Virus record (IMG/VR): IMGVR_UViG_2534681675_000022
Strand: one strand, 5' to 3'
Length of the DNA: 11,637 nt
Origin: a virus
Taxonomy: Duplodnaviria; Heunggongvirae; Uroviricota; Caudoviricetes
Shown here: positions 1 through 11,637 of the stretch, piece by piece
Layout: every line of letters begins with the position of its first letter
Numbering within the stretch: the first letter of the stretch is position 1
The notes under the pieces: generated by a model
Seen by the model: the letters and a program-made list of their open reading frames with translations, nothing else
The model's database searches: none
What the model was told of the DNA's origin: nothing
Translations under genes and position numbers: made by a program

Positions 1-1218
1 ATGAACAAACTGAGCGATACCTTGCTAAGGAAACTTCATGGTAAGCCAGCGGAGAAAAACACGTTTTATAGCGATGGCGGAAATCTGAGCGTGAAATATT
101 TAACATCAGGGAAATTAACCTGGTATTTCACTTACAGGGCAGGAACGGGAAGAGAGACACGACCGGAACGTATTAAGCTGGGAAATTATCCTGATCTGAG
201 CCTGAAAGCAGCCAGGGAAAAAGCCGCCCAGTGTCGCGCATGGCTGGCGGAGGGGAAAAATCCACGCCATGAGATGAATTACGCCGTACAGGAAGCGTTA
301 AAGCCGGTAACGGTTGGCGATGCGCTCACCTACTGGCTTGAGTCGTATGTAAAGGAAAACCGCGTGGATTATATCGCCCTGAAAAGGCGACTTAATAATC
401 ACGTAATACAGTACATTGGCGCTATGCCGCTGGATAAATGCGAGCTACGGCACTGGCTGGCCTGTTTTGACCAGGTGGCAAAGCGAACACCTGTTACTGC
501 CGGATTCGTGCTACAGACATGCAAGCAGGCGCTTAAGTTCTGCCGGAGGCGGCGCTTTGCAATCAGCAACGTTCTCGATGATCTGAACGTGGCGGACGTT
601 GGGAAAAAACCGGATATAAGCGAACGTGTCTTAAGCACCAAAGAACTGGGCGAGTTATTGCAGGCGCTGGATAAAAAAATATTTTCTCCTTACTACGTCG
701 CGTTAATCCGCCTCCTGATTGTCTTCGGAGCCAGGACGGTAGAACTGAGGTTATCGGAGATCAGCGAGTGGGATTTTACCGAAATGCTATGGACCGTTCC
801 GAAGGAGCACAGCAAAACGAAGGTTGCAATATTCCGGCCCATACCGGAAGCGATCCTGCCGTTCGTCACGCGGCTGGTGGACCAGAACAGGCACACGGGC
901 TTATTACTGGGGGAAGTGAAACAGGAGGCTAGCGTATCGCAGTACGGCAGATTAGCGCACAGGAGGCTAAAACACCCTCAATGGTCATTGCATGACATCC
1001 GGCGCACCTTTACAACCATGCTGAACGATTTAGGCGTTGATCCTCACGTCGTGGAGCAGCTTACAGGCCACCAGATGCCAGGAATGCAACGCGTGTACAA
1101 CCATTCCCGCTATATTGATGCGAAACGCAATGCGCTTGATATGTGGGTGGAGCGGTTGGAGATACTGGCGGGAACACATGAAAACGTAACCACGCTACCA
1201 GTAACCAGAATAAAATAA
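1..1218 (+). CDS. int: Tyrosine integrase, P4-like (N-terminal arm-type DNA-binding domain plus C-terminal catalytic domain)
   Basis: 405-aa ORF. N-terminus (KLSDTLLRKL...FYSDGGNLSVKY...WYFTYR...IKLGNYPDLSLKAAREKA) fits the arm-binding domain pattern of P4-family integrases; C-terminus has H-x-x-R (LHDIRRTF) and a catalytic Tyr context (VYNHSRY). Judged by motif, not by search. Confidence 0.9.
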   Translation: MNKLSDTLLRKLHGKPAEKNTFYSDGGNLSVKYLTSGKLTWYFTYRAGTGRETRPERIKLGNYPDLSLKAAREKAAQCRAWLAEGKNPRHEMNYAVQEALKPVTVGDALTYWLESYVKENRVDYIALKRRLNNHVIQYIGAMPLDKCELRHWLACFDQVAKRTPVTAGFVLQTCKQALKFCRRRRFAISNVLDDLNVADVGKKPDISERVLSTKELGELLQALDKKIFSPYYVALIRLLIVFGARTVELRLSEISEWDFTEMLWTVPKEHSKTKVAIFRPIPEAILPFVTRLVDQNRHTGLLLGEVKQEASVSQYGRLAHRRLKHPQWSLHDIRRTFTTMLNDLGVDPHVVEQLTGHQMPGMQRVYNHSRYIDAKRNALDMWVERLEILAGTHENVTTLPVTRIK

Positions 1219-1401
1219 TTTTTTTCGTGTTTTTTCAGTATGCGCATACTGGATAAGTGCACAGATACAACGTGAAACAATGTGCAACAACGTGACACAA
1301 TCACGAACAAGAGGCCAAAAAGAATACAGATTTGTAAGTTACTGATTTTTAATGCTCAGCTGGTTTTTTATACATTAGTGAATTACGCGTTAAAGCGTGC
1401 G

Positions 1402-1438
1402 AAAAAAGGCATAAAACAAGATTTTATGCCTTTGTATT
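1402..1438. terminator. Hairpin with flanking A-run and T-run; candidate bidirectional intrinsic terminator between int and alpA
   Basis: GGCATAAAA (1408-1416) / TTTTATGCC (1422-1430) 9-bp stem with 5-nt loop, preceded by AAAAAA and followed by TTTGTATT; reads as hairpin plus U-run on both strands. Confidence 0.35.
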
Positions 1439-1592
1439 AACATGAATTTAAATGATTTTATCCTGATTATTCCTCTTTCTGTAAACCATGCGACACCAAC
1501 ATTTGCCAACTCTGAATCATCCTGACACAATCAGACACATCCCAACGCAATAGAACACGAAATAACTCTTTAAGAAACGAAAGGGGGCAATA

Positions 1593-1781
1593 GTGTTAAG
1601 CACTGATCGGTTTATACGTGAAAAAGAATGCGAAAAGCTAACAGGCCTTAGCCGCTCATGCCGCTACCGCCTGGAAAAGGCCGGACAATTCCCATCACGT
1701 CGTAAACTTGGCGGGCGTTCTGTTGGCTGGTCTTTATCTGAGGTTTTGGCCTGGAAGGATAGCTGCAAGGCAGTTCACTAA
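1593..1781 (+). CDS. alpA: AlpA-family phage transcriptional regulator (small HTH protein)
   Basis: 62-aa ORF with GTG start at 1593 and a GGGGG Shine-Dalgarno upstream. Sequence LTGLSRSCRYRLEKAGQFPSRRKLGGRSVGWSLSEVLAW matches the AlpA/prophage CP4-57 regulator signature. Position directly after int is typical of PICI and P4-like islands. Confidence 0.8.
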   Translation: MLSTDRFIREKECEKLTGLSRSCRYRLEKAGQFPSRRKLGGRSVGWSLSEVLAWKDSCKAVH

Positions 1782-1922
1782 AAAGACTGGCGGCACACAG
1801 TCGCCACACATCCACTAATACAGAGATATAACTATGAAGATTGAATATGCGCCCGAACGTGGGCGGGGATTCGTTCGCCCTGGTGAAACTGAAAAACAAC
1901 AAAATTGGGGTTTTTCAGGCAT

Positions 1923-1951
1923 AAAAAAAGCGGCCCCGATATGGAGCCGCC
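1923..1951 (-). terminator. Intrinsic terminator on minus strand, downstream of the 2025-2228 minus-strand ORF
   Basis: On the minus strand: GCGGC stem, 12-nt loop, GCCGC, then seven T residues. Confidence 0.4.
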
Positions 1952-2024
1952 TTTCTGAACAATTAACCTGCTGCGCCTTATGTGTATGTGATCCCAAACA
2001 TAAGCACGGGAATGATAGCCGCTA

Positions 2025-2228
2025 TCAGGCTGGTGGGCAATTACCTTGCTTGTTGGGGCCGTATTGTGCTGCCATTTTCATCCGTTCAGAACGTGAATAT
2101 TTTTTTAGAAACTCATCAAGGACAAAAGCGCATGGAGCGAATCTTTCTGATTCATGCTCGAGCGCCATATTTTCGTGCTCTCTGTTCGTTTTTTGCGATG
2201 GTGTATTGGTTGATTCTTTATTGGTCAT
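2025..2228 (-). CDS. Hypothetical small protein (67 aa), paralog 1 of a duplicated pair
   Basis: ORF begins MTNK, shares the motif F-x-L-[DE]-[DE]-F-[LV]-x-K-Y with the 2686-2913 ORF, is preceded by the same conserved leader and followed by a minus-strand terminator. The overlapping plus-strand ORFs are Cys/Ser/Arg-rich and look non-coding. Confidence 0.45.
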   Translation of the reverse strand: MTNKESTNTPSQKTNREHENMALEHESERFAPCAFVLDEFLKKYSRSERMKMAAQYGPNKQGNCPPA

Positions 2229-2233
2229 TGTGT

Positions 2234-2279
2234 GTACCTGTAAAGCAATGCGCCGGAGTTCCTCACGCCACGGCGCTGA
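2234..2279. repeat. Conserved ~45-bp leader element, copy 1 (5' of the minus-strand ORF 2025-2228)
   Basis: About 44 of 47 positions identical to 2923-2966. On the minus strand it reads ATCAGCGCCGTGGCGTGAGGAACTCCGGCGCATTGCTTTACAGG, containing a GCGCCG/CGGCGC 6-bp stem. Confidence 0.6.
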
Positions 2280-2521
2280 TGTTTTTTATTCTTTGGGTTC
2301 AATACCGCGTTGCTGTAATTCTTTTCGGATTATTCGTTTTATCCAAGCTGCTAAAGAGTCATCACCGTCTTGTTGTTGTGCTTTTTCCATCTTTTCCCGT
2401 AAGTCAGGATCTAAACGGAACTGGAAAGGAGGATTACCACGCCTTTCATTTTTGTGTGTTGACACGTCAATTACACCCCATATAATGTGTTTATGTGTAT
2501 ATACACATTACACACAACTAG

Positions 2522-2566
2522 CACAAAAAACAACGCCCCGCAGTGATGGGAACACATACGGGGCGT
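2522..2566 (-). terminator. Intrinsic terminator on minus strand, downstream of the 2686-2913 ORF
   Basis: ACGCCCCG / CGGGGCGT 8-bp stem with 18-nt loop; on the minus strand it is followed by TGTTTTTTGTGC. Confidence 0.4.
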
Positions 2567-2685
2567 CTAACCAAACCATTAATTGAGGTAACGATTATGG
2601 CTATAAAAGAGCATAGCTTACTCTTTATACACACACAAACGCCCCGGAAACGGAATAATCCGTTTCATAGTTCGGTTTTGTGCAC

Positions 2686-2913
2686 TCATCCTGGCGGTCG
2701 GTTTTTGCCGGATTTAAGCCGCCGTGGGTATTTATCGACAAAATCTTCAAGGGCAAATTTTTCTGGTGGCACTAAGCGCGGCGCTGGTGGTGGTATTTTT
2801 GTTCTGGTTAGTTCTTCCTCAAGTCTGGCGCAGGCTTCTGACTGCCTTTGCCGGATGATTTCATCATCTTGCGTTTGCGTGTCTTGTATTGGTGATAGTG
2901 TGTTGTTGGTCAT
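2686..2913 (-). CDS. Hypothetical small protein (75 aa), paralog 2 of a duplicated pair
   Basis: ORF begins MTNN, contains FALEDFVDKYPRR (compare FVLDEFLKKYSRS in the 2025-2228 ORF), and has the same leader immediately 5'. Confidence 0.45.
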   Translation of the reverse strand: MTNNTLSPIQDTQTQDDEIIRQRQSEACARLEEELTRTKIPPPAPRLVPPEKFALEDFVDKYPRRLKSGKNRPPG

Positions 2914-2922
2914 GTTACTGCC

Positions 2923-2966
2923 CTGTAAAGCAATGCGCCGTAGTACCTCACACCACGGCGCTGATA
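2923..2966. repeat. Conserved ~45-bp leader element, copy 2 (between RHH gene stop and ORF 2686-2913)
   Basis: Near-identical to 2234-2279. The three differences all fall in the loop of the GCGCCG/CGGCGC hairpin, so the stem is preserved. Confidence 0.6.
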
Positions 2967-2970
2967 GTGA

Positions 2971-3150
2971 TTATTCTGATTCTTTGGCCTTGCGGCGCTG
3001 GCGGCGTTTGATCTCGCCTTCAAGTGCCGAAACGATAAATTGCCCTGTACTTTCGCCATCTTCCTTTAAATTTTCTACAGCATCAGCTATTGCGTGTGGT
3101 ACTCGAGCCTCAAGCTTTTTGGATTTTGCATTAACTGCTTTTGTTGCCAT
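2971..3150 (-). CDS. Ribbon-helix-helix (Arc/MetJ/CopG-like) DNA-binding protein, 59 aa; candidate island repressor
   Basis: Internal ATG at 3148-3150 with a GAGGAAA Shine-Dalgarno; the ORF track's longer 106-aa version has a poor N-terminus. MATKAVNAKSKKLEARVPHAIADAVENLKEDGESTGQFIVSALEGEI fits the RHH strand/helix/G-x-S/helix pattern (compare Arc ...NLRWPREVLDLVRKVAEENGRSVNSEIYQRV). Divergent from the rightward operon. Confidence 0.5.
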   Translation of the reverse strand: MATKAVNAKSKKLEARVPHAIADAVENLKEDGESTGQFIVSALEGEIKRRQRRKAKESE

Positions 3151-3171
3151 ATCTGATTTCCTCGTTATTAG

Positions 3172-3251
3172 GTGGCTGACAGTATACACACAAGAAAACG
3201 GAAAAACACTATTGACGTGGCTGACACCCGTTACTAATATAGTGGCTGACA
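3172..3251. promoter_or_regulatory. Divergent control region: three direct repeats GTGGCTGACA overlapping a sigma70-like promoter
   Basis: Perfect 10-bp GTGGCTGACA at 3172-3181, 3217-3226 and 3242-3251. TTGACG (3212-3217), 17-bp spacer, TAATAT (3235-3240) faces the plus-strand operon; repeats overlap the -35 and abut the -10. Confidence 0.5.
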
Positions 3252-3344
3252 CCTTTATCAAGGTAATCGATGAAAAGACAAAGCCCCGCAAGTGTCGTTA
3301 CCACTCGCAGGGCTTCTAACCAACAACGTAAACTAGGAGCCGTT

Positions 3345-3542
3345 ATGGTTGCCGTAAATCATATACCACACCTTGTACACACACAAACTGCCTTTGTGTG
3401 GCGTTTTCTGGCCCTGAGTGCCGGAGAATCTCAAATCATCCACGTCACCGCCTGGACGGAACGCGAAGCGCGTAACCGTTGCCCGTCCGGTTGTGTTGCT
3501 GTATTTGCCGCCCGTATTCGTCAGGAGGTGCGCCATGATTAA
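3345..3542 (+). CDS. Hypothetical protein (65 aa), first gene of rightward operon
   Basis: ATG at 3345 preceded by AGGAG; the longer ORF-track version starts upstream of the RBS. Stop overlaps the start of the next ORF. Confidence 0.5.
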   Translation: MVAVNHIPHLVHTQTAFVWRFLALSAGESQIIHVTAWTEREARNRCPSGCVAVFAARIRQEVRHD

Positions 3543-4192: not shown

Positions 4193-4492
4193 ATGAAACT
4201 TAAATATTCTGGCTTAACTGCCAGTGGCAACACTCACCCTAAATTTACGCGCGGTGATATTTACCGCGACCAGTACGGCGGCACGGTAATGATTAAGGGC
4301 GTGGCGGGACGGTGCGTAACTTACCGCCATGAAGGTTACGAATATGATTGCGTGATGCCTGTTTATCAGTTCCGGCGTGATTTTTCTCTGGTACAGACCG
4401 CGCCGCATAACGTGCCCACCAGCAACGCCAGGGCACGGGCAAACATCCAGAAGCTGAAAACCATGATTAACGGATTCAGGGGTAAAAAATGA
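4193..4492 (+). CDS. Hypothetical protein (99 aa), overlaps start of replication gene
   Basis: ATG 4193 with GGAGA upstream; its stop overlaps the ATG of the primase ORF (ATGA coupling). Confidence 0.55.
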   Translation: MKLKYSGLTASGNTHPKFTRGDIYRDQYGGTVMIKGVAGRCVTYRHEGYEYDCVMPVYQFRRDFSLVQTAPHNVPTSNARARANIQKLKTMINGFRGKK

Positions 4493-6237
4493 AACTGGCA
4501 CCGAACGTAAAAAAACAGCCACGCGGAATAAAACACAAAGACACAGAGGTAATTATCTTTGCGGGTAGTGATGCCTGGTCGCACGCGAAACAATGGCAGG
4601 AGCAGGATGGCCCCGCATCCGGCGATAATGTGCCGCCTGTGTGGCTTGGGCCAAAGCAGCTTGCCGAACTTGATGCGCTGAAAATTGTTCCGGATGGGAA
4701 AAAGCGCGTAAGGCTGTACCAGGCCGGAGAACTGGATTTAGTGGAGACCAAAAAGATTGGTCAGAAGCTGGCGGCGGCAGATATTCAGGACGCAAATTTT
4801 TACCACGAAGGAATGCACGTCCAGAAGTGTGAAAACTGGCGGCGCTATCTGAATGCTGAGCGTGAAAATATTGCCGCAGGGCTTACCATGCCGGAGCAGA
4901 AAAATACGCAACTGGCACAAATGGCAGACAGTGAGCGCGCACAGATGCTTGCTGGTCGATTTGATGGCGTTTGTGTGCATCCGGAAAGTGAAATCGTTCA
5001 CGTATGGCGCGGCGGGGTATGGTGTCCGGTCAGCACAATGGAACTTAGCCGCGAAATGGTGGCGATCTATTCAGAGCACAGGGCCACTTTCAGCAAACGC
5101 GTGATCAATAACGCCGTTGAAGCGTTAAAAGTTATTGCCGAACCAATGGGGGAGCCGTCCGGCGATTTGTTGCCGTTCGCCAATGGTGCGCTTGACCTGA
5201 AAACGGGGGAATTTTCCCCGTACACGCCGGAGAACTGGATCACCACGCACAACGGCATTGAGTACACGCCACCAGCACCTGGGGAGAACATCCGCGATAA
5301 CGCGCCAAACTTTCATAAATGGCTTGAGCACGCAGCCGGAAAAGACCCGCGCAAGATGATGCGTATATGTGCCGCGCTGTACATGATTATGGCGAACCGG
5401 TACGACTGGCAGATGTTTATTGAGGCCACCGGAGACGGCGGGAGCGGTAAAAGTACATTCACACACATAGCCAGCCTTCTGGCAGGGAAACAGAACACGG
5501 TAAGCGCTGAAATGACATCGCTTGATGATGCTGGTGGACGTGCGCAGGTTGTCGGGAGTCGTCTTATCGTCCTGGCAGACCAGCCGAAATATACAGGCGA
5601 AGGAACGGGCATCAAGAAAATCACGGGCGGCGACCCCGTGGAAATAAACCCGAAATATGAAAAGCGTTTCACGGCGGTAATCAGGGCGGTGGTGCTGGCG
5701 ACCAATAATAACCCGATGATATTCACCGAACGGGCCGGAGGTGTGGCACGTCGTCGCGTGATTTTCCGTTTCGACAATATTGTTAGTGAGGCCGAAAAAG
5801 ACAGGGAACTACCGGAAAAAATTGCGGCTGAAATCCCCGTTATTATCCGCCGCTTGCTGGCGAACTTTACCGACCCTGAAAAGGCGAGGGCTTTACTACT
5901 GGAACAGCGTGACGGTGATGAAGCACTGGCAATAAAGCAACAGACGGATCCGGTTATTGAGTTTTGCCAGTTCCTGAATTTTCTGGAGGAAGCGCGCGGC
6001 CTGATGATGGGTGGCGGTGGTGATTCAGTGAAGTACACGACCAGGAACAGCCTTTACCGCGTCTATCTGGCGTTTATGGCATACGCAGGCAGGAGCAAAC
6101 CGCTAAACGTGGCTGAGTTCAGCAAGGCCATGAAGCCAGCGGCGAAAGTTTACGGGCATGAATATATTACGCGAAAAGTTAAGGGAGTAACGCAGACCAA
6201 CGCAATTACAACAGACGATTGCGACGCGTTTTTATAA
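4489..6237 (+). CDS. Replication initiator: phage/plasmid primase-associated D5_N-type domain plus P-loop (SF3-helicase-like) NTPase
   Basis: 582-aa ORF. Walker A GDGGSGKST and a Walker B-like hydrophobic stretch RLIVLADQ; central region typical of the P4-family primase C-terminal/D5_N architecture; located directly upstream of an iteron array. Confidence 0.85.
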   Translation: MKLAPNVKKQPRGIKHKDTEVIIFAGSDAWSHAKQWQEQDGPASGDNVPPVWLGPKQLAELDALKIVPDGKKRVRLYQAGELDLVETKKIGQKLAAADIQDANFYHEGMHVQKCENWRRYLNAERENIAAGLTMPEQKNTQLAQMADSERAQMLAGRFDGVCVHPESEIVHVWRGGVWCPVSTMELSREMVAIYSEHRATFSKRVINNAVEALKVIAEPMGEPSGDLLPFANGALDLKTGEFSPYTPENWITTHNGIEYTPPAPGENIRDNAPNFHKWLEHAAGKDPRKMMRICAALYMIMANRYDWQMFIEATGDGGSGKSTFTHIASLLAGKQNTVSAEMTSLDDAGGRAQVVGSRLIVLADQPKYTGEGTGIKKITGGDPVEINPKYEKRFTAVIRAVVLATNNNPMIFTERAGGVARRRVIFRFDNIVSEAEKDRELPEKIAAEIPVIIRRLLANFTDPEKARALLLEQRDGDEALAIKQQTDPVIEFCQFLNFLEEARGLMMGGGGDSVKYTTRNSLYRVYLAFMAYAGRSKPLNVAEFSKAMKPAAKVYGHEYITRKVKGVTQTNAITTDDCDAFL

Positions 6238-6250
6238 TTTTTTGTAAAAG

Positions 6251-6477
6251 CCCTCTACCCCATCTACCTGAATGAAATAAACGCATATTATTCAACATGA
6301 TAAGTGGGTAGAGGGCCAGGTAGAAGGCTAATAAAAGCTCTCTACCTCTTCTACCTGATTTTATCAGTTTCAGATGGCAGGGTAGACGGCAGGTAGAGGA
6401 GCACCAAAAGCTATCTACCCGCTGAAAGCCGCGCCATTACTGACATGATGAGCATTCGGGTAGATGGGTAGAGGGGG
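6251..6477. repeat. Iteron array (candidate replication origin)
   Basis: About 11 copies of GGTAGA[GATC]GG in both orientations, arranged in pairs (CCCTCTACCCCATCTACC; GGGTAGAGGGCCAGGTAGAAGG; CTCTCTACCTCTTCTACC; GGGTAGACGGCAGGTAGAGG; CTATCTACCC; GGGTAGATGGGTAGAGGG) with AT-rich spacers, immediately 3' of the replication gene. Confidence 0.7.
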
Positions 6478-6520
6478 GGAGGCACAACTAAAAACTTTTT
6501 AAACGAGGGGGTGAAAATAA

Positions 6521-6835
6521 ATGCGCATACATCAAAATCACTTAACAAACATGCCAGCCGAAAACATGAATCAGGGGCGACAAATGACCAAAATTCGCAG
6601 AGACAGAACAGAGCCAAAATATAAAGCGTTAGACATGACTGAGCACACCTTAAAGGTGGCAATCAGAACGATAGACCGCCACACGCGGGAAGGATACGCG
6701 AAGGAACATCCCGAACTGATAAGCGCATTCATGACCACAGCGGCGGCAAACTTTGCCACGCTGACAGAACGGGAGATTGCCGAAGCGGAACAGGTAACAA
6801 CCATCAACGTTAAAACCGGAGAGGTGGAATCATGA
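6521..6835 (+). CDS. Hypothetical protein (104 aa)
   Basis: ATG 6521 preceded by GAGGGGGTG; its stop overlaps the SSB start. Confidence 0.5.
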   Translation: MRIHQNHLTNMPAENMNQGRQMTKIRRDRTEPKYKALDMTEHTLKVAIRTIDRHTREGYAKEHPELISAFMTTAAANFATLTEREIAEAEQVTTINVKTGEVES

Positions 6836-7242
6836 CAGCACAGATAGCCGCTTACGGGCGGCTGGTGGACGACCCGCAGGTAAAACAGACCAGCAAGGGC
6901 ACACCGATGACGCTGGCGCGTATGGCGGTCCCCCTTCCGTGCAGCCAGGCAGATGACGGAACGGCTACGTTATGGCTATCGGTGATGGCATTTGGTAAGC
7001 AGGCCGACTTCCTGGCTAAACATCAAAAAGGCGACGTTGCCAGCATATCTGGCGTGATGCAGATAAGCCAGTGGACCGGACTGAACGGGGAAACGCGGCA
7101 GGGTTATCAGGTTATTGCAGACAGCGTAATCAGTGCCCGTGCGGCACGTCCTGGCGGGAACAGACGCAAAACCACAGGCGCACAGGGTAATCAGCCACCA
7201 GCGGGAGACGATGACCCCTACGGTGATGATATTCCGTTCTGA
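6832..7242 (+). CDS. ssb: Single-stranded DNA-binding protein (OB fold) with acidic C-terminal tail
   Basis: 136-aa ORF. N-terminal GRLVDDPQVKQTSKG and the W...FGK...KG...G spacing fit the SSB OB fold; Gly/Gln/Pro-rich linker; C-terminal DDDPYGDDIPF is the canonical SSB tail motif. Confidence 0.75.
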   Translation: MTAQIAAYGRLVDDPQVKQTSKGTPMTLARMAVPLPCSQADDGTATLWLSVMAFGKQADFLAKHQKGDVASISGVMQISQWTGLNGETRQGYQVIADSVISARAARPGGNRRKTTGAQGNQPPAGDDDPYGDDIPF

Positions 7243-7250
7243 ACGCACAG

Positions 7251-7273
7251 GCCGGAGAAAATCCGGCTTTTTG
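7251..7273 (+). terminator. Intrinsic terminator after ssb
   Basis: GCCGGA gaaaa TCCGGC followed by TTTTT. Nearly identical to the terminator at 9517-9542. Confidence 0.7.
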
Positions 7274-7276
7274 TAC

Positions 7277-7325
7277 CCAAAAAAAGCCCGATAAGTACAG
7301 GAGGAAGCTTATCGGGCTTTTGCTT
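7277..7325. terminator. Second hairpin with flanking A/T runs; candidate bidirectional terminator
   Basis: AAGCCCGATAAG (7284-7295) / CTTATCGGGCTT (7308-7319) 12-bp stem, 12-nt loop, preceded by AAAAAAA and followed by TTTGCTT. Confidence 0.5.
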
Positions 7326-7394
7326 ACGAGGTTAACAGCATGGTGACTACTGTTGCTGTAAATCATTTCATAATTTGCAACGCAACTCAATTTT

Positions 7395-7444
7395 ATTGCG
7401 CAAAATGCAATCATGATTATAATCATAACTGGATGAACATCCAG
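7395..7444 (+). promoter_or_regulatory. Candidate late-operon promoter with embedded palindromic operators
   Basis: Perfect TATAAT (7418-7423) with a weak -35 (TTGCGC, 17-bp spacer). The -10 sits inside a perfect 14-bp palindrome ATGATTATAATCAT (7413-7426), followed by a perfect 16-bp palindrome CTGGATGAACATCCAG (7429-7444). Confidence 0.4.
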
Positions 7445-7479
7445 TTGTGATTTTTTAAGTCAAAGAGGAATTTCTGACT

Positions 7480-7686
7480 ATGGCAGAAGAGAAAAAAGGC
7501 GGTGTTTCGGTGTACATAAGCCCCGAAATCGTGGAGGTGCTCAAGCAGCGCCACAAAAAAAACTATGAGGCTGGCGTAGCGGCTGGACTGGATCCGCTGA
7601 TGACGCCGGAGCCGTCGATAGGTTCACTTGTGCGCTCTTATTTACTTGCGGCGCTTGGGATGCATAAAAATTATGGGGGTGAATAA
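7480..7686 (+). CDS. Hypothetical protein (68 aa), first gene of capsid operon
   Basis: ATG 7480 with AGAGGA upstream; its stop overlaps the ATG of the major capsid gene. Confidence 0.55.
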   Translation: MAEEKKGGVSVYISPEIVEVLKQRHKKNYEAGVAAGLDPLMTPEPSIGSLVRSYLLAALGMHKNYGGE

Positions 7687-8741
7687 TGGCAGGCAAAGCA
7701 ACGGCACTTAACACTAACCAGCTTTTTGCGTACCTGAATCGCGGGGATATTGCGGAATTTAAATTCAGTCCGCTGTTTACCACGCTGTTTTTCCCGAACG
7801 TGGCGACATTCAGCACCCAAAACATCATGCTGGATACCCTGGACATTGAAGAAGTCACCATGTCGGCGTTTTGTTCGCCTATGGTTGGCAGCCAGGTACA
7901 GCGCGATAAAGGATACGAAACCAGCACGATTAAACCTGGCTACATGAAGCCAAAGCACGAAATCGATCCAACAAAAACCATCATGCGCATGGCTGGAGAA
8001 GATCCGGCACAGCTTAACGACCCTACCTACCGACGTATGCGCCTGATTACTGGCAACATGCGCCGCCAGGTAAACGCCATTAAAGCGCGCGTGGAATGGC
8101 TGGCGGTGAATGCGATAACGACCGGAAAAAACATTATTGAGGGCGAAGGCATAGAACGCTATGAAATAGACTGGAAAATACCGGAAAACTGCATCATAGA
8201 GCAGGCCAAGGGTAAAAAATGGTCCGAGCAGGATAAAGAGATGCACGACCCAATCTATGACATCGAGCTTTATGCAGATCAGGCTGGTTGCCCCGCAAAC
8301 GTCATGATTATGGGCGCTGAGGTATGGCGCACGTTACGCAGCTTTAAAAAATTCCGTGAGCTGTACGATCTTTCCCGTGGTTCAGAATCCGCCGCAGAAC
8401 TGGCCTGTAAAAACCTGGGCGAAGTGGTGAGCTTTAAAGGCTATCTGGGCGATATTGCCCTTATCGTCTATTCCGGCAAATACGCTGACAGCGACGGCAC
8501 CGAAAAATATTTCCTTGAGCCTGATTTACTGGTCCTGGGTAACACCAACAATAAAGGCCTGGTGGCCTATGGTGCGATTATGGATCAGGAAGCGGTCAGA
8601 ACGGGCGCAACGCAAAACATGTACTACCCGAAAAACTGGATTGAGGACGGCGATCCGGCGATTGAGTACGTGCAGACACACAGCGCACCGCAGCCGGTAC
8701 CGGCAGATATTCGCAAATTTGTTACCGTCAAAATTGGTTAA
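7686..8741 (+). CDS. Major capsid protein, phage lambda gpE family
   Basis: 351-aa ORF colinear over its whole length with lambda gpE (341 aa) as I recall it: EFKFSPLF vs KFKFDPLF; PGYMKPKHEI vs PGYVKPKHEV; EDPAQLNDPTYRRMR vs EDPQNLADPAYRRRR; SRGSESAAELACKNLGEVVSFKGYLGDIALIVYSGKY vs RRGSNSELETAVKDLGKAVSYKGMYGDVAIVVYSGQY; YPKNWIEDGDPAIEY vs YPKNWVTTGDPAREF. Confidence 0.9.
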   Translation: MAGKATALNTNQLFAYLNRGDIAEFKFSPLFTTLFFPNVATFSTQNIMLDTLDIEEVTMSAFCSPMVGSQVQRDKGYETSTIKPGYMKPKHEIDPTKTIMRMAGEDPAQLNDPTYRRMRLITGNMRRQVNAIKARVEWLAVNAITTGKNIIEGEGIERYEIDWKIPENCIIEQAKGKKWSEQDKEMHDPIYDIELYADQAGCPANVMIMGAEVWRTLRSFKKFRELYDLSRGSESAAELACKNLGEVVSFKGYLGDIALIVYSGKYADSDGTEKYFLEPDLLVLGNTNNKGLVAYGAIMDQEAVRTGATQNMYYPKNWIEDGDPAIEYVQTHSAPQPVPADIRKFVTVKIG

Positions 8742-8752
8742 CGGGGGATTCT

Positions 8753-9088
8753 ATGGACACTCCATACATTGAGTTATTCGCAGGCAGTCAGCAGGTCGCC
8801 ACGACGCTGGTACATTTTGCCGCTGATGCTGGCGTTATTCAGGAATTTACCCCGCTGATGCTGGCGGACAATGGCGAGTTTAAGCCGTGGGATGGTCAGG
8901 AATCTGGCAAGGCTGTTTATCTGACTTCGTACCCCGTGGACACGTCGACGCAGAAATCAGCACAGTGTTACAAGACGGGGATATTTAATATCGCTGCCGT
9001 AAACTGGCCTGAGAGCGCCGACACTGACGCGAAAAAATGCGCTGCCTTTGCGGGGGCTGGCGTATCCGTTCAGCCGCTGGCCCGATAA
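8753..9088 (+). CDS. Head decoration protein, phage lambda gpD family
   Basis: 111-aa ORF. TPLMLADNGEFKPWDG, YKTGIF and WPESADTDAKKCAAFAGAGVSV match lambda gpD ([46 protein letters not shown]). GGGGGA Shine-Dalgarno upstream. Confidence 0.85.
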   Translation: MDTPYIELFAGSQQVATTLVHFAADAGVIQEFTPLMLADNGEFKPWDGQESGKAVYLTSYPVDTSTQKSAQCYKTGIFNIAAVNWPESADTDAKKCAAFAGAGVSVQPLAR

Positions 9089-9097
9089 GCAGGGGGA

Positions 9098-9514
9098 ATG
9101 ATGGCAACGAATGAAAGCATCATGACGCTACCGCTGGCGAGTAAATTTAAAGCCGAAGCGCGGGCAATGGCTGACAGAGGGTTATCAACCTACGAGGGCA
9201 TATATCAACTTAACAAACTGGAAGAGCAGGACAAGCCGCGCGCTGATTCGATTATGGCGCTTGATGAATCTGGCGACTATCAGCCGCTGTTACGTGCAAT
9301 GGCAAACGTGCCTTGTATCGATGTTGGTACGGCTAAAAGCATCCTTAGCATGACCATAGAGCAGGAACGTCCGAAGGTTGCGCCGGAGCTTACCGCAGCC
9401 TTTGAAAACTTTATGGACACGCACAGCCCGCAAGCCGTATCAGCTGGCATGGCATACGATGGCAGAAACCCGGGCGATGACGGCGACATCGATCGCATAC
9501 TGAAAACCATCTGA
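9098..9514 (+). CDS. Hypothetical protein (138 aa) downstream of the capsid genes
   Basis: ATG 9098 or 9101 after AGGGGG; last gene before the terminator and cos. Sits where lambda has FI, but I could not support sequence similarity to FI. Confidence 0.55.
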   Translation: MMATNESIMTLPLASKFKAEARAMADRGLSTYEGIYQLNKLEEQDKPRADSIMALDESGDYQPLLRAMANVPCIDVGTAKSILSMTIEQERPKVAPELTAAFENFMDTHSPQAVSAGMAYDGRNPGDDGDIDRILKTI

Positions 9515-9516
9515 GA

Positions 9517-9542
9517 CAGGCCGGAGAAATCCGGCTTTTTTT
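9517..9542 (+). terminator. Intrinsic terminator after the capsid operon, abutting cos
   Basis: GCCGGA gaaa TCCGGC followed by eight T residues; near-duplicate of the 7251-7273 terminator. Confidence 0.75.
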
Positions 9543-9610
9543 ACGGGTCCTTTCCGGCATATGGACCCGTTACGGGGCGGCGACCTCGCGCGTTTTCGCT
9601 ATTTATGAGC
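9543..9610 (+). other. Lambda-type cos site A: cosQ-side flank, cosN (12-nt cohesive end GGGCGGCGACCT at 9575-9586) and first ~24 bp of the cosB side
   Basis: ACGGGTCCTTTCCGG...GTTACG GGGCGGCGACCT CGCGCGTTTTCGCTATTTATGA is almost base-for-base the lambda right-end/left-end junction as I recall it; similarity ends after TTTATGA. Confidence 0.75.
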
Positions 9611-9719
9611 CTTTTCAGGGGGGTGGTGGTGGTTTTGTTGTTTGCTCTATCTTTATGAATGAAAAGGGAAAGATGCAAACAATACACCAACCTGAAGCAG
9701 TAATTAAGTTGGTGTATTA

Positions 9720-10262
9720 ATGAAATCGCACCTGATGAACAAAAAAAACATGGCGAAAAGCTGCCGTGTAAGTGCGACAGCGTTCGACAAGTGGGGAGTG
9801 ACTCCCGTTGAACGTAAAGGCCGTGAGGCGTTTTATGATGTTGCCAGCGTGATAGACAATAGGGTTAACAATGCAATTAGCCAGCTTACAAACGACAAAG
9901 GCGATATTGATGATGATGAACTCTTACGAGTCAGGATCAGATTACTGACAGCACAGGCGGAGGCGCAGGAACTTAAAAACGAGCGCGATCGCGGTGACGT
10001 GATTGATACTGAGTTTTGCCTGTACGCGCTTTCAAAGCTGGCGAGTCAGATTTCATCAATCATGGACAGCCTCCCGCTTACTATGCAAAGGAGCTTCCCA
10101 CAGATTACCCCCGCCATGCTGGACAGGCTTAAAAGGGAAGTGGTTAAAGCCTGTAATGCCAGTGCCAGAGTTGCCGACAACCTCCCACAGATACTGGCTG
10201 ATTACTTGAAAGAAACAACCGGAAACGTACCGGAAAAGTTGCTACAGAAGAAAGGCAAGTAA
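9720..10262 (+). CDS. Terminase small subunit, lambda Nu1 family
   Basis: 180-aa ORF. C-terminal two-thirds align with lambda Nu1: LLTAQAEAQELKNERD vs LTRAQADAQELKNARD; FCLYALSKLASQISSIMDSLPLTMQRSFPQ vs FCTFVLSRIAGEIASILDGLPLSVQRRFPE; LKREVVKACN vs LKRDIIKAMN. N-terminal wHTH region is recognisable (NKK..., YDVASVI vs YDSAAVI) but divergent in the recognition-helix region. Start could be 9720, 9735 or 9750. Confidence 0.85.
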   Translation: MKSHLMNKKNMAKSCRVSATAFDKWGVTPVERKGREAFYDVASVIDNRVNNAISQLTNDKGDIDDDELLRVRIRLLTAQAEAQELKNERDRGDVIDTEFCLYALSKLASQISSIMDSLPLTMQRSFPQITPAMLDRLKREVVKACNASARVADNLPQILADYLKETTGNVPEKLLQKKGK

Positions 10263-10288
10263 CAGAAGCGCAATTATTGAACAAAAAT

Positions 10289-10490
10289 GAGAAAGGATCT
10301 GATAATGGCATTTTCTGGCTAAAATGCCTCGTGTCAGATCCTTTCTTTTTTTAATATTTTCATTGTTAAACAGTCTGTTACAGAGAAGAAGAACGGATCT
10401 GACTTTTGCCGGAAAATTTTCATAAACAGATAAAAACCGCGAGGTCGCCGCCCCGTAACGGGCCATAATTCCAGGAAGGACCCGACGACA
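10289..10490 (-). other. Lambda-type cos site B in inverted orientation: cosQ-side flank, cosN (10442-10453) and a full cosB-like region with three R-like repeats
   Basis: Minus strand reads CGGGTCCTTCCTGGAATTATGGCCCGTTACG GGGCGGCGACCT CGCGGTTTTTATCTGTTTATGAAAATTTTCCGG ...CCGTTCTTCTTC..., tracking lambda cos for more than 100 bp. Core GGATCTGA/TCAGATCC at 10294-10301, 10333-10340 and 10395-10402 sits where lambda has CGTTTCC/GGAAACG, in the same orientation pattern. The inner 13-bp inverted repeat (10289-10301 / 10333-10345) plus T-run also looks like a terminator for terS. Confidence 0.75.
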
Positions 10491-10517
10491 CCAGGCTATC
10501 AGAACGATGGGGGCACA

Positions 10518-10799
10518 ATGACAGAAGCCGAACTACTGCGATTAATCCGCCGCGTTACCGGAATCAGCCAGCAGCATGACGAACAGGGCACGCAACCGGA
10601 CAGCGTGACCGCTGAAAATTATGCGCGTGTTGTTGCTGAGGTGATGCGCCGTGATGGTATTGAGCTTAACGGCGTGGATATGCGCAACATACGAACCAGA
10701 GTCCTTGAGTTGCTGGCATACCGTCGCCGCGTGGAGATGTATCGGGAGAAGGAGAAAATCACGTACCACTGGAAGAAGCCGGAACGGTTGCGGCGGTAA
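10518..10799 (+). CDS. Hypothetical protein (93 aa) just outside cos B
   Basis: ATG 10518 after GATGGGGG; Arg-rich helical-looking protein; no recognisable family. Confidence 0.4.
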   Translation: MTEAELLRLIRRVTGISQQHDEQGTQPDSVTAENYARVVAEVMRRDGIELNGVDMRNIRTRVLELLAYRRRVEMYREKEKITYHWKKPERLRR

Positions 10800-10882
10800 C
10801 TCACTGAGATTAAAGCAAAGCTCAAAATTGCGCTGGCTGAATGATCATTATGATTACTTATGTTTACGCAGATGATTAAGGC
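10789..10882. repeat. Direct repeat, copy 1 (~90 bp), overlapping the 3' end of the 93-aa ORF
   Basis: GGCGGTAACT...TTAAAGCAAAGC[TG]CAAAATTGCGCTGGCTGAAT[GA]ATCATTATGATTAC...GCAGATGATTAAGG; copy 1 has an extra TTATGTT relative to copy 2. Confidence 0.6.
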
Positions 10883-10922
10883 CTAAACCGTTGATTATTC
10901 CACAATCCCCCATTGGGGGAAG

Positions 10923-11005
10923 CTGGCGGTAACTGGTTGAACTTAAAGCAAAGCGCAAAATTGCGCTGGCTGAATAATCATTATGATTACGCAGATGATT
11001 AAGGA
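10923..11005. repeat. Direct repeat, copy 2 (~83 bp)
   Basis: Same unit as 10789-10882. Contains the AGCGCAA aa TTGCGCT hairpin and the ATCATTATGAT palindrome. Confidence 0.6.
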
Positions 11006-11022
11006 ATGACCGAAGGCGGAAA

Positions 11023-11322
11023 TTCGCCTGTGGTTGATGGGGGAGTTGCAGATCTGCAACTCGACCATGAAATTACGGAAACTACCCGTAGTTTGGGTAG
11101 TAAGAGCAACACCCAGATTTTGGGGCTTACTCGTGATACCCAAATTTGGGGTATCGGCGGCAACCATAACGACTTTCGTTACGGTTGATGCTTTTACCCC
11201 ATTGAGGGAAAGGTATTACGATAATCATAACACCTACCGAACAGGTAAAGCCCACCAGCCTGATTAACTGTTAACCGGAAAAAAATTCCGGTAGGGTTCC
11301 CGATATGGGAATCCCCATATCG
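11023..11322. other. Palindrome-dense non-coding region near the right end of the island (candidate att arm / regulatory or structured RNA region)
   Basis: Consecutive perfect or near-perfect palindromes: AGGCGGAAATTCGCCT; GTTGCAGATCTGCAAC (16 bp); AAACTACCCGTAGTTT; GATACCCAAATTTGGGGTATC; TTAACTGTTAA; CCGGAAAAAAATTCCGG; CGATATGGGAATCCCCATATCG. No convincing ORF. Confidence 0.4.
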
Positions 11323-11484
11323 ACAGCAACGCCCCCTTAAAATTACCCGCCTTTATATTTCTTGTGCCTATTTGTTCCACGTTGTTTCATACAGTGCGCC
11401 GAACGGTGTAGTCACTGGTGTAGTTATTTTGAGTTTTTTTGCACTTCGGGCTTAATTGAAAATATAATTAAATCAGTATGTTAT

Positions 11485-11637
11485 TCAAAATAAGTTATAT
11501 ATAACAGCAATAAATAATGCGAGAATAAACGGCACGAGGATCTCGGCGGCAAAACGGATACCGCAGAGAATAATGACCAGCATTCCCAACATAATGACGA
11601 TTTTTAGACCATTGAGCGTGATGATCGGCTTTGCCAT
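11485..11637 (-). CDS. Short ORF (50 aa): N-terminal fragment resembling the AI-2 exporter TqsA/YdgG (AI-2E family) membrane protein, apparently truncated at the island junction
   Basis: Minus-strand translation from the ATG at 11637: [46 protein letters not shown], then YNLF and stop. This matches the TqsA N-terminus as I recall it for ~46 residues; the downstream sequence becomes AT-rich and unrelated. Confidence 0.5.

Follow-up and report, generated by a model that had tools for sequence, protein, structure and literature searches.

The window, by which we mean the whole 11,637-bp stretch of DNA analysed, is an E. coli phage-inducible chromosomal island (PICI) related to EcCICFT073, whose gene order it shares. 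A chromosomal island of E. coli OkiPb01694 matched it over its entire length at 99.9% identity, and in near-identical relatives the island interrupts tqsA. PICIs generally carry an integrase, an AlpA-type regulator, a rep gene and genes for packaging or capsid interference, all transcribed one way within about 10-15 kb. The window agrees with this in the genes listed below, and L094 (RM10466), a near-identical island, has an annotated helix-turn-helix regulator. The genes of the window that bear on the analysis are as follows:

1-1218, tyrosine integrase (int), from a domain search
3270-3542, Icd-like protein
4193-4492, DUF4222 protein
4489-6237, plus strand, Pri-Rep initiator-helicase (Rep) of 582 aa with Pfam D5_N, DUF5906 and Pox_D5
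6521 or 6584 to 6835, small ORF following the candidate origin
6832-7242, SSB
7686-8741, lambda-E-like major capsid protein
8753-9088, gpD-like decoration protein
9720-10262, Nu1-like small terminase homologue

The start of the small ORF is annotated differently among relatives (ATG 6522 in CFT073; ATG 6584 in DEC5A, RM13514 and RM10466). The lambda cohesive-end 12-mer GGGCGGCGACCT was present at 9575-9586 on the plus strand and at 10442-10453 on the minus strand, inverted and flanking the Nu1-like gene; the two copies sit in 77-bp inverted repeats (9544-9619 and 10409-10484), and the paired sites fit the cos.1 and cos.2 deletions listed for EcCICFT073 (PMC6092414). In BLAST comparisons with sister islands, cross-matching repeats were found at 2237-2292/2922-2977 (56 bp, 87.5% identity) and at 10792-10881/10925-11004 (~90 bp, 81%), which suggests that segments were duplicated in the region following int and close to the island's right end.

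Directly 3' of rep lies an array of GGTAGA hexamers, the first core of which (6254) begins 17 nt past the stop codon (6235-6237). An earlier note on this DNA had described about 11 GGTAGA-core repeats in paired, alternating orientation, and the description proved accurate: a pattern search of both strands of the window returned 12 copies, exactly 11 of which fell within 6254-6472 (a span of 219 bp), the twelfth being isolated at 738 inside int. The 11 cores form five same-orientation pairs (8-12 bp spacing), the orientation alternating from pair to pair, together with a singleton at 6414. In 200 shuffles of the whole window that preserved dinucleotide frequencies, the GGTAGA count never reached 12 (mean 2.6, maximum 8), and the number expected in 227 bp from base composition was ~0.11 (Poisson P ~1e-18). 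A scan of 6150-6600 for GGTAGA with one mismatch found zero copies. The parts of the region, with the start and strand of each core, are:

6254-6259 and 6263-6268, minus strand, iteron pair A, two GGTAGA to the left of the AT-rich spacer
6270-6306, no strand, AT-rich spacer of 37 nt between pairs A and B, candidate DNA-unwinding element
6307-6324, plus strand, iteron pair B, GGTAGA at 6307 and 6319
6341-6355, minus strand, iteron pair C, GGTAGA at 6341 and 6350
6381-6397, plus strand, iteron pair D, GGTAGA at 6381 and 6392
6414-6419, minus strand, single iteron E
6421-6443, plus strand, conserved non-iteron block CTGAAAGCCGCGCCATTACTG inside the array
6459-6472, plus strand, iteron pair F, GGTAGA at 6459 and 6467
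6491-6520, plus strand, conserved tract AAAAACTTTTTAAACGAGGGGGTGAAAATAA

The extended iteron consensus in the array was R-GGTAGA-n-G-G-S. Because longer direct repeats are present as well (6245-6271 and 6332-6358 are 89% identical), the array seems to have been built of about three diverged units of 73-87 bp each. The AT-rich spacers that had been proposed along with the repeats were borne out in part: GC content was 27% at 6270-6306, as against 48% for the whole window, and ranged from 36% to 54% in the other spacers (36-38% in the next two and 50-54% in the last two), so that one spacer is markedly AT-rich. The spacer at 6270-6306 was not among the eight least stable stretches of the window and is off-centre, with two iterons to its left and nine to its right; it is flanked by oppositely oriented pairs, minus (6254, 6263) and plus (6307, 6319). 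By analogy with SaPI and Gram-negative PICI origins (PMC9371898, PMC6092414), it may serve as the unwinding element. The tract at 6491-6520, which lies within the rep-ori cassette described below, combines an A5-C-T5 element (6491-6505) with the ribosome-binding region of the next gene; the conserved stretch AAAAACTTTTTAAACGAGGGGGT runs from 6491. The A5-C-T5 element is a possible bend or unwinding site, and the CTGAAAGCCGCGCCATTACTG block is possibly a host-factor site or a priming site. A similar A8-C-T6 tract follows an iteron pair in the crr element of P4. A DnaA-box consensus search of the region gave one chance-level match with one mismatch (6241-6249), an IHF consensus search of the array region gave nothing meaningful, and an Rfam search of the whole window returned zero families.

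The protein encoded next to the array comprises an N-terminal region of ~140 aa, a helicase core (D5_N plus DUF5906) of P4-alpha/D5 type, and, at the C-terminus, an origin-binding domain (aa 486-574). Rep was 40% identical (E 1e-109) to residues 326-756 of P4 alpha, which make up the helicase and origin-binding part of that protein, and left the primase part of alpha unmatched. The C-terminal domain matched the P4 alpha origin-binding domain (PDB 1KA8; E 8.5e-6), and the core matched PriRep5 of SaPI5 (7OLA; E 1.2e-15). Identity to EcCICFT073 Pri-Rep was 90% overall and 97% over the C-terminal 100 aa. The earlier note had placed the array 3' of a primase/NTPase gene, which is correct as to position; the primase domain, however, went undetected. 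The N-terminal 154 aa of Rep had zero matches in Pfam, with neither a Zn-ribbon nor a Toprim domain detected, whereas P4 alpha, whose primase domains these are, scored Zn_Ribbon_Prim and Toprim_3. The label 'primase' on the gene stems from TIGR01613, a model of the helicase part for which Rep scored 106.4 bits, just under the 108.7-bit cutoff; the name is without backing by any detectable primase domain.

The N-terminal ~130 aa are homologous in three otherwise unrelated types of initiator-helicase (P4-alpha-like, DUF927 and RepA/AAA_25), encoded at 4489-4900 in the window (Rep aa 1 to ~140), at 4715-5140 in L094 and at 4689-5108 in a third island, L095 (2011C-3911). The L094 and L095 domains were 63% and 41% identical to that of the window and belong to no Pfam family, and a single-sequence AlphaFold model of the domain gave alternating strands and helices at low confidence (pLDDT 54). 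This shared domain may be an adaptor, specific to satellites, that connects to the replication proteins of host or helper, or else a cryptic primase.

Fillol-Salom et al. (2018, ISME J, PMC6092414) state that Gram-negative PICIs have their origin directly 3' of the gene for replication initiation. That paper was the sole match in a literature search on E. coli PICI iteron biochemistry, which yielded no EMSA for any E. coli PICI Rep. The EcCICFT073 pri-ori fragment maintained a temperature-sensitive plasmid at the restrictive temperature, the rep mutant plasmid gave zero colonies under the same conditions, and deletion of ori reduced colony numbers significantly without abolishing them (PMC6092414). 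When the cloning primers of that study were mapped on CFT073 (L002), the pri-ori insert extended from 6214 to ~8323 and the delta-ori insert ended at 8016. The 'ori' removed in the deletion is accordingly a 307-bp intergenic segment (L002 8017 to ~8323) that corresponds to window ~6242-6543 and has all of the hexamers inside it, so that the test was of the whole 307-bp intergenic fragment rather than of single iterons. One of the deletion primers contains CAGGTAGACAGGGTAGACAGC. EcCICFT073 itself carries 11 GGTAGA at corresponding offsets, with the same gene order, and in EcCIRM13514, also named in PMC6092414, the 11 hexamers lie exactly as far from the stop codon as they do in the window.

The window therefore falls within the EcCICFT073/EcCIRM13514 lineage, as defined by an alignable intergenic region, conserved offsets and Pri-Rep identity of at least 77%. 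The CATTACTG and A5CT5 blocks are shared as well, and an AT-rich spacer likewise follows the first iteron pair. The window differs from EcCICFT073 in the iteron flank (GGTAGA-nG in the window, GGTAGA-YA in EcCICFT073), in three residues of the origin-binding domain (AEFS in the window, NDFG in EcCICFT073), in one pair B copy that is shifted and on the other strand, and in the island backbone and integration site (tqsA in the window, another site in CFT073). More precisely, the EcCICFT073 subclass keeps the 6307 copy one or two bases farther from the stop and has, in place of the second copy of pair B, a minus-strand copy ~12 nt farther on.

The wider conservation of the array was examined in an alignment of nine intergenic regions whose Reps were 77-99% identical to that of the window. 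Invariant columns made up 52 of the 66 iteron-core positions but only 44 of the 177 non-core positions within the array (Fisher P 3e-14; nine relatives), and several of the apparent core changes were one-base alignment shifts. Pair A was invariant in all nine of these diverged relatives, and its offsets of +17 and +26 from the stop recurred in most GGTAGA-type loci; iteron E and the 6381 copy of pair D were likewise invariant, the 6392 copy had one substitution in one of the nine, and at each copy of pair C one or two of the nine differed by one base. The spacer between pairs A and B drifts in sequence among relatives, although its AT-richness and a length of 38-40 nt are kept in most loci. 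Outside the cores, the CTGAAAGCCGCGCCATTACTG block was nearly invariant and the AAAAACTTTTTAAACGAGGGGGTGAAAATAA tract was kept in all nine aligned relatives.

For a broader sample of 92 loci, the commonest 6-mer in the 330 bp past the rep stop was taken; viral contigs searched with the Rep alignment gave 80 loci and genome contigs searched with Rep gave 3. The top 6-mer was GGTAGA or the overlapping TAGACA in 76 of the 92 (Rep 69-99% identical), of the TGTTCA(C/T) type in 12 (Rep 52-55% identical; Serratia, Morganella, E. coli and viral contigs), and GGTATACA in 4. Reps at 52-55% identity were accompanied by arrays in the same place and of mixed orientation, with TGTTCA-type or GGTATACA cores. 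The number of GGTAGA copies per relative was 9-12, apart from one locus with 7. The core of the CTGAAAGCCGCGCCATTACTG block, CATTACTG, occurred 3' of rep in 72 of the 92 loci, a TGTTCAC-type locus among them, and AAAACTTTT occurred in 79 of the 92, across iteron classes. Three loci with Reps at 69-71% identity (L011, L075 and L077, from E. coli JNU and viral contigs) kept the GGTAGA core in 11-12 copies but arranged them quite differently, in a nearly symmetric order (+++-++--+---, where + is GGTAGA on the plus strand), with a hairpin (GCTGAATCCCTTG...CAAGGGATTCAGC) in place of the CATTACTG block. When 6100-6600 of the window (the 3' end of rep plus the candidate origin) was used as the query, 534 of 5,426 complete E. 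coli genomes matched, some of them in up to three places; co-resident islands with the same iteron core therefore exist.

Within the GGTAGA class, the bases flanking the core went together with a short motif in the origin-binding domain: the motif A[ED]FS (33 loci) was found with the flank GGTAGA-nG and the commonest orientation pattern ++--++--+--, and N[DE]FG (40 loci) with GGTAGA-YA and the commonest pattern ++-+++--+--. EcCICFT073 has the orientation ++ - +++ -- + -- in the TCTACC sense, a pattern that was also read by eye from the sequence of the TGTTCAT-type locus L083. Between L083 and L088, Rep identity is 97% in the helicase core but drops to 87% in the origin-binding domain, and the two loci have different iterons (GGTGTTCAT in the former, GGTATACAT in the latter). 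GGTAGA-class flanks were uniform over all copies of a locus, and because the copies within a locus are concertedly identical, the pattern speaks for a cognate Rep that recognises a site of ~8 bp. Subclass specificity is predicted for iterons such as GGTAGAGG and GGTAGACA. The covariation of domain and iteron is confounded by tight physical linkage, from which alone an association of this kind would be expected, and it comprises few independent switches.

Near-identical islands with other initiators carry other repeats in the same place. L094 matches window 1-3529 and 6581-11637 at 99.4% identity, yet its initiator is a DUF927 protein and its intergenic region contains 0 GGTAGA and 11 copies of TAACCCGCA; L095 has the window's backbone together with a RepA-type AAA_25 helicase, and its intergenic region contains 0 GGTAGA and ~7 copies of AAAGTGGGGAG. 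Conversely, the GGTAGA array was retained with rep in front of different downstream genes in L001, L007, L011 and L096. On the strength of these swaps and retentions, the sequence comparison indicates that rep and the array are exchanged as one cassette, extending from window ~4575/4842 to 6580. The right edge of the swap (6581-6598) coincides with the ATG 6584 start, and a recombination boundary lies directly after the shared N-terminal domain. A broader proposal, to which we give somewhat less than even odds, is that the array is an allele among interchangeable rep-ori cassettes in which small changes in the origin-binding domain retuned all 11 iterons in concert and the N-terminal domain acts as an adaptor or a cryptic primase. 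The specificity classes under this tentative proposal would be GGTAGA-nG, GGTAGA-YA, TGTTCAC, TGTTCAT, GGTATACA, TAACCCGCA (DUF927) and AAAGTGGGGAG (RepA), and, if it is true, there would be replication-specificity or incompatibility groups among co-resident satellites.

Classical iteron plasmids (pPS10, R6K, RK2, F and P1 type) have direct iterons of 17-22 bp and DnaA boxes, and their initiator is a Rep_3-type winged-helix protein without helicase activity. The window has in common with them repeats of the initiator-binding type beside the initiator gene and an AT-rich region, but its iterons are 6-8 bp long and arranged in inverted pairs, and its initiator is a P4-alpha/D5-type helicase. The likeness to SaPI origins is closer in layout. 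In SaPI origins, rep is followed directly by 6-12 iterons of five or six nucleotides (Ubeda et al. 2007, 2012, via PMC9371898), with an AT-rich region that has at least two iterons per side in opposite directions, and SaPI Rep, a hexameric helicase that loads itself, carries a winged-helix domain at its C-terminus (PMC9371898). The window likewise has 11 hexamers 3' of rep, an AT-rich region between opposed pairs and, judging from homology (1KA8, 7OLA), a helicase initiator with a C-terminal winged-helix domain. It departs from SaPIs in its Gram-negative host lineage, in the lack of sequence similarity between the origins, and in an AT-rich region that is short (37 nt) and off-centre (2 versus 9 iterons).

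Phage P4 provides the third comparison. Its crr lies directly 3' of alpha and comprises ten annotated repeats of the TGTTCACC type, which occur in both orientations and have an A/T tract behind them; the window similarly has short repeats in both orientations 3' of its gene, followed by an A-tract and a T-tract, and its Rep carries an origin-binding domain of the alpha type. P4-like TGTTCA(C/T) iterons were confined to loci whose Reps are at 52-55% identity to that of the window, among them relatives in Serratia, Morganella and E. coli. The window core, however, is GGTAGA rather than the P4 type 1 iteron TGTTCACC, there is no terminator between gene and repeats, and a single cluster is present where P4 has both an ori and a crr, cis elements separated by 4.5 kb. 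In a local alignment of the window array with P4 crr the score lay within the shuffled null; since this DNA similarity was not significant, the link to P4 rests on protein homology and layout.

The P4 case also bears on how the array should be read, because crr is required in cis while the annotated origin lies ~4.5 kb off, so that a position 3' of rep is alone no proof of a start site. The array might accordingly be a crr-like enhancer or copy-control (handcuffing) site that binds Rep while DNA synthesis starts elsewhere, as in P4. The place of crr relative to alpha, its repeats in both orientations and the A/T tract that follows them would accord with such a role, as would the short, off-centre AT-rich spacer of the window. 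We regard this as improbable, because a second iteron cluster is absent from the window (GGTAGA recurs only at 738 in int) and because the EcCICFT073 fragment that begins shortly before rep and takes in the intergenic region was enough for plasmid maintenance; the insignificant DNA similarity to crr points the same way. Less probable again is that the hexamers are operator sites through which AlpA, a PerC-like protein or some other protein of the island controls the downstream SSB/capsid operon. The array does lie between two co-oriented gene blocks and just upstream of the next ribosome-binding site, and inverted repeat pairs are typical of operators too, but a scan of 6100-6650 for sigma-70 promoters and intrinsic terminators found none, and the array is swapped together with rep while the upstream regulators and downstream genes stay 99% identical; this reading is disfavoured on both counts. 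Moreover, the array persists ahead of unrelated downstream genes, and 11 sites over 220 bp would be atypical of an operator.

The two remaining explanations have hardly any probability. The island encodes a Nu1-like small terminase homologue, in view of which the array could be imagined as a set of small-terminase binding sites or a cos-accessory element; yet the lambda cos 12-mers at 9575 (plus) and 10442 (minus) are ~3 kb from the array, which is kept in islands with other terminase and capsid modules and lost in islands that have the same packaging module and another rep. A packaging site was therefore excluded, given these cos 12-mers and the independence of the array from the packaging module. 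Nor does functionless repetitive DNA, or a coding part such as the minus-strand ORF 6411-6662, account for the array: this ORF of 83 codons with a TTG start does overlap the right end of the array, but the cores are far more conserved than the spacers, the flanks are homogenised across all copies within each class, and the ORF was rejected as coding because one-nucleotide indels separate close relatives within 6411-6480.

We conclude, with a probability of about 0.88, that the array serves an E. coli PICI of the EcCICFT073 family as its vegetative replication origin. The proposal from which the analysis started, that of an initiator-bound iteron origin beside the replication gene of an inducible island, is thus supported, and on four grounds: the array aligns with the EcCICFT073 fragment whose deletion cut Rep-dependent maintenance; the hexamer cores are conserved while the spacers drift; near-identical islands pair different initiators with different repeats in the same place; and the C-terminus of Rep is homologous to the origin-binding domain of P4 alpha.

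How such an origin would work can be outlined from the SaPI and P4 literature (PMC9371898), from which we infer the binding of Rep to the iterons, the melting site, the loading of a double ring and bidirectionality. The adjacent gene would supply a self-loading initiator-helicase with a P4-alpha/D5 core, the C-terminal winged-helix domain of which would read the ~8-bp iterons GGTAGAnG(G). Rep bound to the opposed pairs flanking 6270-6306 would assemble helicase rings that melt this spacer and then unwind outward, the pairs at 6341-6472 would contribute cooperative Rep binding, and the CTGAAAGCCGCGCCATTACTG and A5CT5 blocks would be auxiliary origin elements. Upon induction by a helper phage the island would be excised, the cassette would amplify island DNA, and packaging would take place at the separate cos sites.

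Because the array aligns site for site with the tested EcCICFT073 origin, the finding is real but ordinary: this kind of origin and the lineage to which it belongs were already known, having been published in 2018, and the result serves mainly as a correct annotation. Mildly new points are the modularity of the cassette, the flank-level covariation with the origin-binding domain and the shared N-terminal domain. For the biology of these islands, the array would be the cis element for self-amplification of the satellite after helper induction, a prerequisite of its high-frequency transfer.
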